In this document: positions 5,736 to 11,603 of the stretch, one piece after another
How positions within the stretch are numbered: the stretch's first letter is position 1
Layout: every line of letters starts with the position of its first letter
NCBI GenBank assembly: GCA_964565195.1
Contig: CAZMCQ010000004.1
Location: forward strand, 64,133-128,132
Direction: 5' to 3'
Length of the DNA: 64,000 nt
Source of the DNA: an uncultured Candidatus Saccharibacteria bacterium
GTDB lineage: Bacteria; Patescibacteriota; Doudnabacteria; UBA920; 2-01-FULL-46-14
The notes under the pieces: generated by a model
The model's database searches: none
What the model was told of the DNA's origin: nothing
What the model saw: the letters and a program-made list of their open reading frames with translations, nothing else
Program-made: the position numbers and the translations under genes

Positions 5736-6065
5736 ATGGCCAAAGCAGCGACAGAAGCGCCCTCAACCCGAATCAGGATAAAGATCCGCGCCTATGACCA
5801 CAAACTTATAGACCAAAGCGCGAAGCAAATCGTGGACACCGCCAAGCGCTCGGGCGCGACCATCGCGGGTCCCGTGCCGCTGCCGACCGAGAAGACGAAA
5901 TACACGGTCAATAAATCCACCTTCGTCCACAAGGATTCCCGCGACCAGTTCGAGATGCGCATCCACAAACGGCTCATTGACCTCTCTAACCCTACCCAAA
6001 AAACCATCGATGCCCTGACGAACCTGAATTTACCTGCCGGCGTGGACGTGGAAATTAAGATGTAA
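5736..6065 (+). CDS. rpsJ: 30S ribosomal protein S10
   Basis: ...[30 protein letters not shown]... with the S10 signature. Confidence 0.93.
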
Positions 6066-6070
6066 TAAAT

Positions 6071-6094
6071 AAACCGCCCGCAAGGGCGGTTTTA
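6071..6094 (+). terminator. rho-independent terminator after rpsJ
   Basis: ACCGCCC-gcaa-GGGCGGT followed by TTTT. Confidence 0.75.
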
Positions 6095-6226
6095 AGTTAT
6101 CCACGGCATTAAAACCGCTAGAGCATTTGACTGATAATCATTCGCGCGAATCGGTACATAGCCAGTTTTTGAGCAAAAAATCGAGCGCCGCTGTAAAAGT
6201 CGGCGCTCATTACGGTTTGAGGGTTT

Positions 6227-6255
6227 TTCATCAATTGTCTTCGTTTTGCTATAAT
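6227..6255 (+). promoter_or_regulatory. extended -10 promoter (TGcTATAAT) for the protease cassette
   Basis: TGCTATAAT at 6247-6255 with a weak -35 TTCATC at 17-nt spacing. GGAGG at 6268-6272 lies 5 nt before the ATG at 6278. Confidence 0.5.
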
Positions 6256-6277
6256 ACGAAAAACGACGGAGGTAATT

Positions 6278-6832
6278 ATGAGATATGTTGTCGGTTATGA
6301 CCGGGATTTTGCCACGCAATATTTCAGACGGAGCGTCCTACCCTTGCTCGCGCTGCCGCCATTTAAGGTTATCGCCGATGTGGAGCTGAACTACTTGGCG
6401 AGCAGGTTTGGCGAAGATGTCTGCGTTCCTTTGTATAATGAACTTGCACGCCCCCCGGAGCGGCACGCCATTGAGCTTTTGTTGGATATTAGAAAAGTGA
6501 GAGCGGACCGGCGGCTTAGTCAGATGGCTGAAGGGGCTGCCAACGGACTCCTTTTTTATCAGGGTTTGCCAGCGCGTGGTGGTTTGCGGAAACTTCGTCG
6601 GCTCGACATGAACCGTCGGCAAGTCGCAGTCCTTATCAAGAAACTATACAATCGCGCGGCATTGGCCAAATTTCGTACGAGTGACGAAAAAGGACTTTTC
6701 CACAGACTCAGCGAGCATATCCCCGAGTGGCTCGACCTCTTGTCGCTCATCCCGGGCAACGATTTTGTGGAGGTCCACGAGAGCTCCACGTCGCTACTGT
6801 TCGGGGTATCGCCCTCCACAAAAATCAACTAG
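6278..6832 (+). CDS. hypothetical protein (184 aa), first gene of the cassette inserted into the S10 operon
   Basis: Good SD (GGAGG) and promoter. No recognisable motif. A terminator follows. Confidence 0.55.
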   Translation: MRYVVGYDRDFATQYFRRSVLPLLALPPFKVIADVELNYLASRFGEDVCVPLYNELARPPERHAIELLLDIRKVRADRRLSQMAEGAANGLLFYQGLPARGGLRKLRRLDMNRRQVAVLIKKLYNRAALAKFRTSDEKGLFHRLSEHIPEWLDLLSLIPGNDFVEVHESSTSLLFGVSPSTKIN

Positions 6833-6837
6833 CTTTT

Positions 6838-6890
6838 GACCTTGGACTTTTCGCGCTTTCGGGCGCGGGGAGTCCAGGGTCTCTTTTTTT
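6838..6890 (+). terminator. rho-independent terminator (long GC hairpin + T9)
   Basis: GACCTTGGACT...CGCGC-tttcg-GCGCG...AGTCCAGGGTC followed by TCTTTTTTT. Confidence 0.7.
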
Positions 6891-6915
6891 CAAAAAAGTG
6901 GTAAAATTGATTTAT

Positions 6916-7290
6916 ATGATTATGGACAGACAGGAGTTTGAAAAATTGGTGGGGGAGGCGATTGAGGGGTTGCCGGAGCAGATTCGCGAGAAGATGGACA
7001 ATGTGGCGGTGGTGATTGAGGATTATCCAAAATCCAAACAGGGCGCTCTGCTCGGGCTTTATGAAGGCGTACCTCGGACGAAGCGGGGGCCGGGCTATAC
7101 TCTGGTTTTGCCGGACAAAATTACCATTTTCCAGAAATCCATCGAACAAATCGCCGCTACGCCCGAAGCGATCAGACAACAAGTGCGGCAAACCGTCTGG
7201 CACGAGATCGCGCACCACTTTGGGTTCAGCGAGGAAGGCGTGCAGGATCTCGCCAGGCGAAGGAAGGGCATTTCCCGGGACCGGACTTGA
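6916..7290 (+). CDS. small zincin-like metallopeptidase (HExxH)
   Basis: MDRQEFEKLVGEAIEGLPEQIREKMDNVAVVIEDYP...TVWHEIAHHFGFSEEG, giving a C-terminal HEIAHH motif. The N-terminus is uncertain (ATG at 6916 or 6922). Confidence 0.6.
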   Translation: MIMDRQEFEKLVGEAIEGLPEQIREKMDNVAVVIEDYPKSKQGALLGLYEGVPRTKRGPGYTLVLPDKITIFQKSIEQIAATPEAIRQQVRQTVWHEIAHHFGFSEEGVQDLARRRKGISRDRT

Positions 7291-7350
7291 CATTTTCGCG
7301 CCGCTGCGAGAAAATAGTATTGTAAATAATCATTAAACAAGGAACAAACC

Positions 7351-8118
7351 ATGAAACTTTCCCGAATTTTTGGCATTGCCGCCGTGATGACCCTGCTCGT
7401 CGGCGGTGTGCCGGTGTCTGCCGCTCACTCCTGGGGCAATTATCATTGGGCGCGGACAGCCAATCCCTTCACGCTGAAGCTTGGCGATAATGTTTCTTCT
7501 GCCTGGGATGACCAGTTGGGAGTCGCGTCGGCGGATTGGAGCTTGTCTTCGGTTTTGGATACGCAACTCACCGCCGGGGCAACTAATCCCAAAAACTGCC
7601 GACCGGCGAGCGGACGGGTAGAAGTCTGCAACAGCAAGTACGGCAAAAACGGCTGGCTTGGCGTGGCTTCCATCTGGATTTCCGGCAGCCACATTACCCA
7701 AGGCACGGTGAAGCTTAACGACACCTATTTTAACACGGCCCAATATAACACGCCGGCGTGGAGACAGTTTGTGATGTGTCAGGAGGTTGGCCATACCTTT
7801 GGCCTGGATCATCAGGATGAGAATTTTACCAATGCCAATCTCGGCAGCTGTATGGATTATACTAATGATCCGTCAACCAACCAGCATCCCAACCAGCATG
7901 ACTATGATCAGTTGGAGATAATCTATGAACATTTGGATAGCACCACGACCATTGCCTCCGCCGACCTTTCCAGCCCGGGCAAAGGCAATGATGTCGGTGA
8001 TGATCCGGCAAGCTGGGGGAAAGTTATCAAGCGCTCGGGCGATGGCAAAAGTTCGCTGCATGAAAAAGACCTGGGCCGCGGGGGCAAGGTCTTCACCTTT
8101 GTCATCTGGGCAGAATAA
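7351..8118 (+). CDS. secreted metzincin-like metalloprotease (serralysin/astacin-like motif with a Met-turn)
   Basis: N-terminal signal peptide MKLSRIFGIAAVMTLLVGGVPVSAAHS. The motif QEVGHTFGLDH fits xExxHxxGxxH. The Met-turn-like SCMDY fits SxMxY. Confidence 0.55.
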   Translation: MKLSRIFGIAAVMTLLVGGVPVSAAHSWGNYHWARTANPFTLKLGDNVSSAWDDQLGVASADWSLSSVLDTQLTAGATNPKNCRPASGRVEVCNSKYGKNGWLGVASIWISGSHITQGTVKLNDTYFNTAQYNTPAWRQFVMCQEVGHTFGLDHQDENFTNANLGSCMDYTNDPSTNQHPNQHDYDQLEIIYEHLDSTTTIASADLSSPGKGNDVGDDPASWGKVIKRSGDGKSSLHEKDLGRGGKVFTFVIWAE

Positions 8119-8124
8119 ATCTCT

Positions 8125-8154
8125 AAAAAACCCTGCCAGAGAGCGGGGTTTTTT
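8125..8154 (+). terminator. rho-independent terminator
   Basis: AAAAAA-CCCTGC-cagaga-GCGGGG-TTTTTT. Confidence 0.7.
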
Positions 8155-8160
8155 CAAGGT

Positions 8161-9627
8161 ATGGACATAAAAAAACTTCTCTCGATAGGTATTGTTTTGA
8201 TTTTGGCCGCGGCGGCCTATATCTTTTTGCGACCGGCGAACAACCTCCCGGCGAACAACCTCCTTGGAAAAAACATCGCGATTTACGCCTATACTGTGGC
8301 AGGCAAATCCAATGGGGGAGCGAGCGTGGCCGTGCCCTTTACTATTGACGCTAAGGACAGCGGATTGCTAAATGCCGCGCTTGATTTCAATCACGATGGC
8401 AAAGTCGCGGCAGAAGAATGGGTGGTGCAAAATATCCGGCCGCGTGTCCAGAAAGACGGCCGCAACCTTTTGCATTTTACCCTGCCAGAGGGAATAGCCC
8501 TTGGCGATGACAAGATTGCGGTATTTGTTGCATTGGGGAAAGAGCCACTCACGAATTGGGACGGCACAAAAACAGGCGCGTCTTACCGGCAGACGCGAGC
8601 CAAAATTTCACCAGTCGAGCTGGGCGATGTTCTGGGCTTAAATGTTCCGGGCGCGGGGCCGGATGTGTATCGCGGCAGTAACGGATCGTTTTTGAAGGAA
8701 TTTGCGGGAATCTCCACGGCTCTGGCTGATCCGATTGATGTGCAGTCAGACCTCGAGATCCCGGATTACCCACAGGGCAATATGGAATGCGGCCCGACTT
8801 CGGCCGCGAACAATCTTACTGGACTCGCCGGCGCCAATGGCGCAGGTGATAGATTACCAACCAATCCGCGTGAGATAATTGATGAGCTGAAAACGGATAT
8901 GAATTTCAACAACGGCGTGATTGGGGCTGACAATTTTGTGAATGGCAAAAACGCGTTTACCAGCCGCCACCAGCTGCCGATCACCACGACGGTGATTGAG
9001 CGGCCCTCGGTTCAGGATATCGCGAGCGCCATTCAGAACGGCTGCGCGGTGGAGATGGACCTCGCGTTTGTGGAGGCGGTAAATGGGCGAGCGGGCCGGC
9101 ATGTGGCCAGCCACACGGTCACGGTGACCGGTGTTTACTCTGACGGCGCGGACAAGGCGATTTATGGTGCTGATTCGGCGACGCCTGACGGGGTGGAGAT
9201 CTGGCGCTTCTCTGACCGGGGCCCGAATTTGCAGCTTGGCTATCCTTTATGGGATGGCGCGACTGTGGTGATGCGCATCTTCGTGCAGTGCTGGACGCCG
9301 CCGGCACAACCAGACGAGTCGCGCACCGCGCCGCCGGAAGAACCGGAAGACCAGGCCGGAAGTGGCAAAGCAGTGGAGATGCTCGTGATCAACGGTGTGT
9401 ACTATCCCAAGTACCAATTTCGCGTGGCTAATCCGGATGCATGCGGACAGCCGCATTATCATGCTGCTACGGCTTATGGACTCTCGGGCCGCGATTCGCT
9501 GGAAGTGGTGAGCGCGCCTGATCCCAATCCCAGCGGCTGCGGCTTTGGCGCAGTCGCCGAGGTGCCGGTGGAGACGATTACCATTTCCCACGAACAATCC
9601 CTTGAGCTTGTCAAATACCTCTGGTAG
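8161..9627 (+). CDS. membrane-anchored 488-aa protein with a papain-like (peptidase C39-like) Cys/His domain
   Basis: N-terminal TM segment LLSIGIVLILAAAAYIFL. The segment QGNMECGPTSAANNL resembles the C39 Q....CG.AS catalytic Cys region. The later GRHVASHTVTVTGVY resembles the His block. Confidence 0.4.
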   Translation: MDIKKLLSIGIVLILAAAAYIFLRPANNLPANNLLGKNIAIYAYTVAGKSNGGASVAVPFTIDAKDSGLLNAALDFNHDGKVAAEEWVVQNIRPRVQKDGRNLLHFTLPEGIALGDDKIAVFVALGKEPLTNWDGTKTGASYRQTRAKISPVELGDVLGLNVPGAGPDVYRGSNGSFLKEFAGISTALADPIDVQSDLEIPDYPQGNMECGPTSAANNLTGLAGANGAGDRLPTNPREIIDELKTDMNFNNGVIGADNFVNGKNAFTSRHQLPITTTVIERPSVQDIASAIQNGCAVEMDLAFVEAVNGRAGRHVASHTVTVTGVYSDGADKAIYGADSATPDGVEIWRFSDRGPNLQLGYPLWDGATVVMRIFVQCWTPPAQPDESRTAPPEEPEDQAGSGKAVEMLVINGVYYPKYQFRVANPDACGQPHYHAATAYGLSGRDSLEVVSAPDPNPSGCGFGAVAEVPVETITISHEQSLELVKYLW

Positions 9628-9636
9628 AATACATCC

Positions 9637-9765
9637 ATGATGGGATATGGAAACTTTGGGCAGATGATGGGCGGTGCGGGGTGGTTTGCGGGCCTCACGT
9701 GGCTCGTGGTGCTTATCGACCTCGTGCTGCTTGGCATCTGGCTCTGGAAGCAAATCCAAAAATAA
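9637..9765 (+). CDS. 42-aa Gly-rich hydrophobic peptide MMGYGNFGQMMGG|AGWFAGLTWLVVLIDLVLLGIWLWKQIQK
   Basis: ATG lies 10 nt after the stop of the C39-like gene. There is no SD. It has a double-glycine, then a TM helix, then a KQIQK tail. Below the ORF-track size cutoff. Confidence 0.3.
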   Translation: MMGYGNFGQMMGGAGWFAGLTWLVVLIDLVLLGIWLWKQIQK

Positions 9766-9787
9766 ATTGAGAAAAAATAAATTGAGA
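9761..9787 (+). repeat. 12-bp direct repeat AATAAATTGAGA x2 immediately upstream of the rplC promoter -35
   Basis: Seen directly in the sequence. Confidence 0.5.
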
Positions 9788-9788
9788 T

Positions 9789-9817
9789 TTGACACCCTCC
9801 CCGGGTTGTATTAGAAT
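9789..9817 (+). promoter_or_regulatory. promoter TTGACA-17nt-TAGAAT for rplC and the downstream S10/spc genes
   Basis: -35 at 9789-9794 and -10 at 9812-9817. Confidence 0.55.
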
Positions 9818-9853
9818 TAATCAGGAATTAATTAAATTGTCCTTCGGGACATG

Positions 9854-9919
9854 ATCCGCCGAATCGGCGGATATCGCCGAAGATTCGACTGTATAGCCAG
9901 CGGATCTTGCTGGTTTTTT
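9854..9919 (+). promoter_or_regulatory. structured S10-operon leader: perfect palindrome ATCCGCCG-aat-CGGCGGAT, then hairpin GCCAGC-ggatctt-GCTGG + T6 abutting the rplC start. Attenuator-like.
   Basis: Seen in the sequence. Position analogous to the L4-responsive S10 leader in E. coli. Confidence 0.4.
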
Positions 9920-9926
9920 GTTCAAA

Positions 9927-11198: not shown

Positions 11199-11600
11199 AT
11201 GGGAATTTTTGGTAAGAAAACTAAGCCAGAAGAAACGAAGACAGCGGAAGAGATTAAGCCAGAGGTGAGTCGGTCCGCCTCCGCTTCCACCAAGGCGGAC
11301 AAGAAAGCCAGGACGGGTAAACAGGTTTTGGTGCGGCCGCTTTTGTCGGAAAAAGCCACGCGTCTGGCCGCAGCCGGCCAGTATGTCTTTGCGGTGATGC
11401 GCGGCTCGAACAAACCCGAGATCAAAAAAGACATTGAGCGGCTTTATAGCGTGCATGTGGAAAGTGTCAACATCGTTAACATGCCCGGAAAGAAGCGGCG
11501 TTATGGCAAAAGCCAAGGCAAAACTTCCGAGTGGCGGAAGGCCGTGATCAAAGTCCGCGCGGGCGAGAAGATCCCGGGCATCCTGGAATCGGTTGGATAA
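11199..11600 (+). CDS. rplW: 50S ribosomal protein L23 (with a roughly 40-aa N-terminal Lys/Glu-rich extension)
   Basis: ...VLVRPLLSEKATRLAAAGQYVFAVMRGSNKPEIKKDIERLYSVHVESVNIV... Confidence 0.8.
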   Translation: MGIFGKKTKPEETKTAEEIKPEVSRSASASTKADKKARTGKQVLVRPLLSEKATRLAAAGQYVFAVMRGSNKPEIKKDIERLYSVHVESVNIVNMPGKKRRYGKSQGKTSEWRKAVIKVRAGEKIPGILESVG

Positions 11601-11603
11601 AAT

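Follow-up and report, generated by a model that had tools for sequence, protein, structure and literature searches.

A membrane-anchored cysteine peptidase of 488 amino acids (aa) and a 42-aa membrane micro-protein are encoded side by side in a 64,000-nucleotide (nt) stretch of contig CAZMCQ010000004.1 from an uncultured bacterium of the Doudnabacteria (the window, in whose numbering coordinates are given). In this work, the two were found to be unrelated genes that are neighbours only in this one species. We consider it probable that the pair consists of a surface cysteine peptidase and a micro-protein of metal operons, the latter most likely with an accessory role. A sequence-only reading of the same DNA had proposed a peptide-processing pair, in which a C39-like peptidase acts on a small peptide with a Gly-Gly leader. 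The two open reading frames (ORFs) are as follows.

8161 to 9627, forward strand: ORF of the peptidase, 488 aa (ORF call)
9637 to 9765, forward strand: ORF of the micro-protein, 42 aa, sequence MMGYGNFGQMMGGAGWFAGLTWLVVLIDLVLLGIWLWKQIQK (ORF call)
9637 to 9765, forward strand: the same ORF as a single-pass membrane micro-protein, with a Met/Gly-rich N-terminus, a transmembrane (TM) helix that carries Asp28, and a basic C-terminal tail (family profile and conservation)

Both ORFs are present with the motifs that had been quoted for them. The block QGNMECGPTSAANNL corresponds to residues 205-219 of the 488-aa protein, and GRHVASHTVTVTG includes His318, which lies 108 residues past Cys210. The genes share a strand and are separated by 9 nt, counted from the peptidase stop codon to the 42-aa ORF. 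A chance ORF was ruled out in both cases, for the 488-aa protein by homologs down to E = 0, and for the 42-aa ORF by an E-value of 1e-23 against the profile of its family and by over 130 protein clusters related to it. The pair was found on three contigs of one organism, one in the NCBI assembly GCA_016198105.1 (a metagenome-assembled genome of Candidatus Doudnabacteria) and two in Logan assemblies, and the sequence is identical across all three. The gene calls of the NCBI contig omit the 42-aa ORF (11477-11602, equivalent to 9637-9765 in the window); it is called in the Logan assemblies.

Evidence that the genes are unrelated comes from their lack of co-occurrence. Contexts of peptidase homologs from other organisms were available as L004-L008 and L089-L098, 13 of them with at least about 180 nt downstream; the metagenome scan with the peptidase alignment returned only four loci. 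A gene of the micro-protein family was present in none of the 13, including L004, whose peptidase is 70% identical to that of the window. The neighbourhoods of these 13 homologs all differ from one another, and no small conserved ORF was found downstream of them, the ORFs present there being mutually unrelated. A weak, sub-threshold profile match in L098 (12.6 bits) was rejected, as it falls in the TM helix of a protein that is 140 aa or longer and unrelated. The reciprocal scan with the micro-protein, using one genome per species, gave 128 loci with relatives, 80 of which were retained together with as much as 10 kb of sequence to either side. These 80 loci span Paceibacteria, Zambryskibacteria, Woesebacteria, Levybacteria, Gottesmanbacteria, WWE3, Moranbacteria and other lineages, and a C39-family gene lies within 10 kb of the micro-protein in none of them. 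The sole match to the peptidase profile near a micro-protein is the C-terminal HYH module alone, which occurs in an unrelated ORF of L059, 8.4 kb off. The small ORF is thus absent beside the peptidase in related genomes (0/13 and 0/80), which is the observation that the sequence-only reading had named beforehand as speaking against a processing pair.

As a stand-alone double-glycine pair, the C39-like peptidase would cut the 42-aa protein after Gly-Gly13 and free a 29-aa hydrophobic, cationic peptide. This agrees with the adjacency of the genes across 9 nt and with the C39_2-type catalytic site of the peptidase, but it is at odds with the missing co-occurrence and with the residence of the peptide family in metal-efflux operons that have no peptidase. 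The conserved MMGG of the peptide family would suit a processing site, although the segment before it is a Gly-rich "leader" of only 13 residues that belongs to no Pfam or NCBIfam leader family, and the "core" is the best conserved part, a TM helix that would stay in the membrane. The peptide N-terminus and the peptidase domain are both predicted to be extracytoplasmic, so they could meet; genuine C39 domains, on the other hand, are cytoplasmic, and the C39 profile PF03412 is not matched here. Taken with all these points, a double-glycine pair appears highly improbable.

The identity of the peptidase was established from its catalytic core and from three further modules.

8161 to 8235, forward strand: N-terminal signal anchor, residues ~1-25, K4 K5 followed by a hydrophobic helix (sequence; modelled helix at residues 3-22)
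8266 to 8625, forward strand: beta-sandwich domain, residues ~36-155, with an EF-hand-type Ca2+ loop D75-x-N77-x-D79-G80...E86 (all-beta model and conservation)
8755 to 9177, forward strand: catalytic papain-like core, residues 199-339, with Gln205, Cys210, His318 and Asp338 (Pfam C39_2 profile and conservation)
9355 to 9624, forward strand: C-terminal domain of ~90 aa, C-x3-H-Y-H ... C-G-F-G (invariant columns and model)

The 488-aa protein is a membrane-anchored, papain-fold, Peptidase_C39_2-like cysteine peptidase. Residues 199-339 match Pfam Peptidase_C39_2 (PF13529) with 28.2 bits when the full protein is scored and 30.8 bits when the domain is scored by itself, modest values that lie above the gathering score of 24, and the match runs over the whole domain (profile positions 2-142 of 143). 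Only six of the 11 family members match Peptidase_C39_2 at E <= 1. The residues Gln205, Cys210, His318 and Asp338 are the same in all 11 aligned sequences, which have 31-71% identity to the window protein, so the Cys and His singled out by the sequence-only reading are conserved in homologs. The AlphaFold2 model (mean predicted local distance difference test score, pLDDT, of 77) has a papain-like fold, and Foldseek with this model retrieved staphopain, cathepsins and plant papains at probability 0.9-1.0. The family is large: an exhaustive profile search with clustering at 50% identity gave 837 representatives, 152 of them at E <= 1e-30. The existing NCBI name for exactly this protein is "C39 family peptidase". 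Hence it is already annotated at the C39 level, and the C39-like reading is correct for Pfam C39_2 and the papain fold.

The same reading does not hold for the classical C39 family. PF03412 is unmatched by the window protein, with Pfam at E <= 1 and at the relaxed E <= 10, and by all 11 family members. The family profile search found no solved C39 domain among the PDB sequences, and a single-sequence search of the PDB with the 488-aa protein returned nothing relevant. That no ABC transporter lies beside the peptidase, as noticed earlier, was confirmed: none is fused or adjacent to it, its neighbours being ribosomal proteins and zincin-like genes, and a conserved ABC partner is also absent from nine longer homolog contexts. 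The anchor noticed at the N-terminus was likewise recovered as a hydrophobic stretch (residues ~6-22, after K4 K5) that is modelled as a helix, and by the positive-inside rule the catalytic domain is predicted to be extracytoplasmic. A classical C39 bacteriocin-processing identity was ruled out by the negative results with PF03412 and the PDB profile search, the lack of an ABC partner and the predicted outward domain. The 488-aa protein is not a double-glycine leader peptidase.

We hypothesize that the peptidase is held in the membrane with its bulk directed outward, where Cys210 would act as the nucleophile and His318 as the base, Asp338 would orient the His, and Gln205 would form the oxyanion hole. 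Its substrates would most likely be surface or secreted proteins, or cell-wall peptides. Cell-wall peptides are as plausible as proteins, because Peptidase_C39_2 domains are catalogued as catalytic domains of phage endolysins with Gram-positive hosts (PMC8223927).

Outside the catalytic core, the beta-sandwich domain contains the EF-hand-type loop, in which D75 and E86 are invariant and N77 is nearly invariant in the 11-sequence alignment. Pfam EF-hand_5 gives weak matches in three of the 11 members (best E = 8.9e-4), and the loop may bind calcium. A Pro/Glu-rich linker connects the catalytic domain with the C-terminal Cys/His beta domain, whose invariant residues are C428, H432, H434, C460, G461 and G463 and whose model reaches a pLDDT of 93.5. 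This domain has no Pfam match at E <= 10, including the Pfam YHYH family, and Foldseek against the PDB gave no significant match (best E = 1.7). Copies were also seen on their own, in proteins of 87-132 aa (P0258, P0234), and within the unrelated 249-aa ORF of L059 (L059:18565-19311), and the domain appears to be a mobile, undescribed module. A metal link of the peptidase through this HYH domain was considered and rejected: the domain is present in one of the 80 peptide loci, 8.4 kb away, and YHYH is unmatched. In 10 longer relatives of the peptidase, no informative fused domains were found, only C39_2 or zinc ribbons, and a cell-wall-binding domain was found in none of the 10.

The 42-aa ORF is a member of an unannotated, conserved micro-protein family that is spread throughout the Patescibacteria. 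The database search with this protein yielded over 130 clusters of Patescibacteria proteins, 40-45 aa in length, with the family consensus MMGYG..GGMMGGAG…DLVLLGIWLWKQI.KK, in full MMGYGxxGGMMGGAGxxGxITWLVVLxDLVLLGIWLWKQIxKK. Neither the 42-aa protein nor 60 family members are covered by Pfam, NCBIfam or PHROGs, and matches to PufX, RodZ and holin families are at noise level (best holin E = 0.031, in few members). A description of the family, or of DUF5676, was not found in the literature. Presumably, the micro-protein is similar to the N-terminal parts of membrane proteins with a SHOCT domain or of COG3462. Over 198 distinct sequences, and for positions outside the residues of the search pattern, the conservation is 99% for Asp28, 96% for Met2, 94% for Ile40, 92% for Gly13, 91% for Lys42 and 90% for Met11; positions 29-37 are also conserved, with a bias from the search pattern. 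The TM helix and the basic tail are therefore conserved at least as well as the N-terminal segment, whereas in a leader/core precursor a conserved leader and a variable core are expected. Such a pattern fits a functional membrane protein, unlike a leader/core precursor. The Gly-Gly peptide with a leader that had been proposed is thus not borne out, since the segment before the Gly-Gly comprises 13 Gly-rich residues outside any Pfam or NCBIfam leader family and the helix and tail are best conserved. At the amino-acid level the small ORF is indeed conserved; the family to which it belongs, however, stands on its own and is associated with P1B-ATPase/CsoR operons.

This link was revealed by clustering the flanking ORFs of the 80 loci and annotating the clusters with Pfam. 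The recurrent neighbours are E1-E2 (P-type) ATPases, CsoR-type repressors, DUF305, multicopper oxidases, DsbA-like thioredoxins, DUF1573 and DUF5676. A P-type ATPase is present in 36 and a CsoR-like gene in 26 of the 80 loci, and at least one of ATPase, CsoR, DUF305 or multicopper oxidase is present in 44. The association depends on distance. ATPase genes reach a density of 15.1 per 100 kb within 1 kb of the micro-protein (23 genes) and 0.5 per 100 kb at 7.5-10 kb, a difference of about 30-fold, and none was found in 136 kb of control sequence. By comparing the gene order, two layouts can be distinguished. In the first, CsoR is followed by DUF1573, a Cys-rich 310-aa protein, a CcdA-like protein, the micro-protein, DUF5676 and the P1B ATPase. 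In the second, the micro-protein is divergent from a unit in which multicopper oxidase, ATPase and CsoR lie on the other strand (multicopper oxidase < ATPase < CsoR). Metal-homeostasis operons were seen in L032, L043, L053, L059 and L078, and also in L029, L037, L041, L042, L063 and L088. The 310-aa Cys-rich protein of the operon carries CCGNSTAFPDCNHG and has no Pfam match. The closest relative with a usable context (L099, 79% identical) lies 88 nt 3' of a P-type ATPase containing HMBD and overlaps a redoxin gene; because this context was taken from other data, in which the genes had been called separately, it confirms the ATPase linkage independently.

The P1B TM motifs in the neighbouring ATPases are CPH in 16, CPC in nine and CPD in seven, and the ligand fingerprints of the repressors are CsoR C-H-C in 14 and RcnR-like C-H-H in 13. 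From these motifs and fingerprints, copper is the most likely metal, with other metals also being candidates. The seven ATPases with CPD instead of the usual CPC/CPH, among 33 neighbouring P1B ATPases, are those of L009, L037, L042, L058, L059, L063 and L078, and the CPD-type ATPases have Met-rich N-termini with 11-17 Met in the first 120 residues. The records of L009, L015, L032, L043, L044, L053, L058, L059 and L071 are titled "uncultured Gammaproteobacteria bacterium", and all of them carry a Patescibacteria-type micro-protein, mostly in an operon. These titles are probably placeholders or wrong taxonomy.

The 42-aa protein might also be a membrane-damaging peptide, such as a type I toxin or a holin-like or bacteriocin-like peptide, rather than a protein of metal homeostasis. 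Its very small size, its hydrophobicity and the basic tail at its C-terminus would suit this, and a few members have the weak holin-family matches given above, but the conservation of its sequence over many Patescibacteria lineages with one copy per locus, and the strong distance-dependent synteny with P1B ATPase and CsoR, are not what such a peptide would show. Moreover, the recurrent clusters of flanking ORFs include no genes for an antitoxin, immunity or export, and we regard a membrane-damaging function as very unlikely.

For the metal-operon micro-protein, the positive-inside rule suggests that the KQIxK(K) tail (KQIQK here) is cytoplasmic and that the Met/Gly-rich N-terminus lies outside. 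The N-terminus holds two Met pairs in a Gly-rich stretch, which would be exposed on the outer side. In copper proteins outside the cytoplasm, pairs of Met typically serve as ligands of Cu(I). The buried, invariant Asp28 suggests a helix-helix contact with a partner membrane protein. The usual home of the micro-protein would be in or beside CsoR/RcnR-regulated P1B heavy-metal ATPase operons, most likely those of copper pumps, and beside a copper-type pump its role would most likely be that of a small subunit accessory to the pump or of a partner that handles Cu(I), as judged from synteny and sequence features. Thus, we tentatively propose, at somewhat less than even confidence, that the family comprises Met-motif Cu(I)-handling accessory subunits of P1B ATPases, like PacL and KdpF and unrelated to them in sequence; that the micro-protein is also a substrate or partner of the peptidase in Doudnabacteria is less likely.

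Some observations weigh against the view of two unrelated neighbours. The 9-nt gap, the shared strand and the lack of a terminator between the genes mean that they are probably co-transcribed here. The MMGG motif is conserved in the micro-protein family, as a cleavage site also would be, and the predicted topologies would put the peptide N-terminus and the peptidase domain on one side of the membrane, so that cleavage would be physically possible. For the metal part, 30 of the 80 micro-protein loci have no recognisable metal gene, their neighbours being miscellaneous and without a peptidase, and no P1B ATPase or CsoR was found in the 64-kb window. The window copy therefore belongs to the "orphan" class, and such orphan loci indicate that the micro-protein can exist away from a pump. 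The putative accessory role draws on synteny and features of the sequence. As to the adjacency itself, genomes of the Candidate Phyla Radiation (CPR) are small and densely packed on one strand, and adjacency is for this reason weak evidence of a functional link.

The surroundings of the pair bear on the possibility that the two genes are linked in this species other than by processing. A block of five genes, ~3.85 kb in length (6066-9926), lies between rpsJ (S10, 5736-6065) and rplC (L3, 9927-10544), which are adjacent as a rule. The block contains a 184-aa ORF, a Zincin_1 protein, a 255-aa secreted zincin-like protein, the peptidase and the 42-aa ORF. Three of the five genes are peptidase-like, namely those for the Zincin_1, the 255-aa secreted zincin-like and the C39_2-like proteins. 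The 255-aa secreted protein (7351-8118) has the motif QEVGHTFGLDH, which resembles the metzincin HExxHxxGxxH with Gln for the first His, and its Pfam matches are all sub-threshold (Reprolysin_5, E = 0.005). A very strong terminator-like hairpin (6838-6881; 20-bp stem with 11 G-C pairs, then a T run) is situated just 3' of the 184-aa ORF. Two promoter-like elements were found in the region.

7287 to 7315, forward strand: promoter-like site TTGACA-17-GAAAAT, 5' of the 255-aa zincin-like gene (consensus scan only, 10 of 12 positions)
9789 to 9817, forward strand: near-consensus promoter TTGACA-17-TAGAAT, directly past the micro-protein stop codon (11 of 12 positions)

The first site is a possible start of a three-gene unit (7351-9765), the number of promoter-like sites across the region being not above the shuffled expectation. 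No terminator was found between the peptidase and micro-protein genes or before 9789. Under a lineage-specific link, the micro-protein would have been recruited as a membrane partner or regulator of an operon of zincin-like, C39-like and micro-protein genes in this Doudnabacteria species. Three tightly packed genes on one strand behind the promoter-like site at 7287-7315, with no terminator before 9789, accord with this, yet dense one-strand packing in small CPR genomes makes co-transcription weak evidence. Three contigs of the species show exactly this arrangement; they carry one sequence, however, and thus show no evolutionary retention, and the closest other peptidase (70% identity) is without the arrangement. 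Recruitment of this kind seems very unlikely to us, and two unrelated neighbours remain the favoured explanation.

The second element, at 9789-9817, is predicted to open the leader of the rplC operon and to mark the end of the inserted block. Upstream of it, a 13-nt direct repeat AAATAAATTGAGA is found at 9760-9772 and 9775-9787. Downstream, a structured leader of ~100 nt is followed by a terminator-like hairpin (9895-9915 and a T run) directly before the rplC ATG. The leader between this promoter and rplC may act as an attenuator of the L3-L4 operon; no Rfam family matches it, and its folding z-score is only -2.2. The Rfam scan of the whole window found nothing.

Had the pair been real, it would have represented a minimal, transporter-free form of double-glycine maturation in an ultra-small bacterium of the CPR; the evidence is against it, and this lead can be dismissed as false. 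Two modest new leads arise instead. One is a CPR-restricted family of surface cysteine peptidases with an unusual architecture, including a confidently folded C-terminal domain that is unmatched in Pfam and the PDB. The other is the micro-protein family, a candidate that would join the few tiny membrane proteins known as partners of P-type ATPases. The omission of the 42-aa ORF from the NCBI calls also illustrates that conserved micro-proteins are easily missed by annotation.

Among known systems, the peptidase is closest in kind to Pfam Peptidase_C39_2 (clan CA), with which it shares a full-length profile match, the order and spacing of Gln/Cys...His...Asp and the papain-like fold; the window family differs in adding a membrane anchor, a beta-sandwich with the putative calcium loop and the undescribed C-terminal Cys/His domain. 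Classical C39 peptidases (PF03412; ComA, PCAT1, LahT) have the clan and the type of catalytic residues in common with it, and a Gly-Gly is found in the neighbouring small protein. Unlike them, the window peptidase matches neither PF03412 nor a solved C39 domain, has no ABC transporter and is predicted to be extracytoplasmic, whereas the C39 domains of peptidase-containing ABC transporters are cytoplasmic. In contrast to classical C39 substrates, the small protein next to the peptidase shows no co-conservation with it and has no 15-30-aa leader, and this small protein departs from double-glycine leader peptides (class II bacteriocin, NHLP, Nif11) in its 13-aa Gly-rich segment, the missing match to a leader family and the highest conservation in helix and tail. 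The top structural match is to staphopain A/B (MEROPS C47), secreted papain-fold cysteine peptidases of staphylococci (Foldseek E = 2e-5, probability 1.0, TM-score ~0.6 target-normalised). Staphopain acts outside the cell, and the window peptidase is likewise predicted to do so; the two differ in that sequence identity is ~11% with no relationship detectable at the sequence level, and in their accessory domains. No staphostatin-like inhibitor gene was identified near the peptidase.

For the micro-protein, the nearest counterparts are PacL proteins (DUF1490; PacL-like DUF6110), which are small single-pass partners of mycobacterial P1B ATPases (PMC13460109). Both are small single-pass membrane proteins that are operon-linked to a heavy-metal P-type ATPase, in the case of the micro-protein family at 36 of the 80 loci and not for the window copy. 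The micro-protein differs in having no DUF1490 or DUF6110 match (window protein and 60 members) and neither the cytoplasmic Glu/Ala repeats nor the His-rich tail. With its ~42 aa it also has no cytoplasmic region past KQIQK, whereas PacL acts through its cytoplasmic region, and the candidate metal-binding Met pairs of the micro-protein are N-terminal and predicted to lie outside. A further parallel is provided by the KdpF-type micro-subunits of P-type ATPases.

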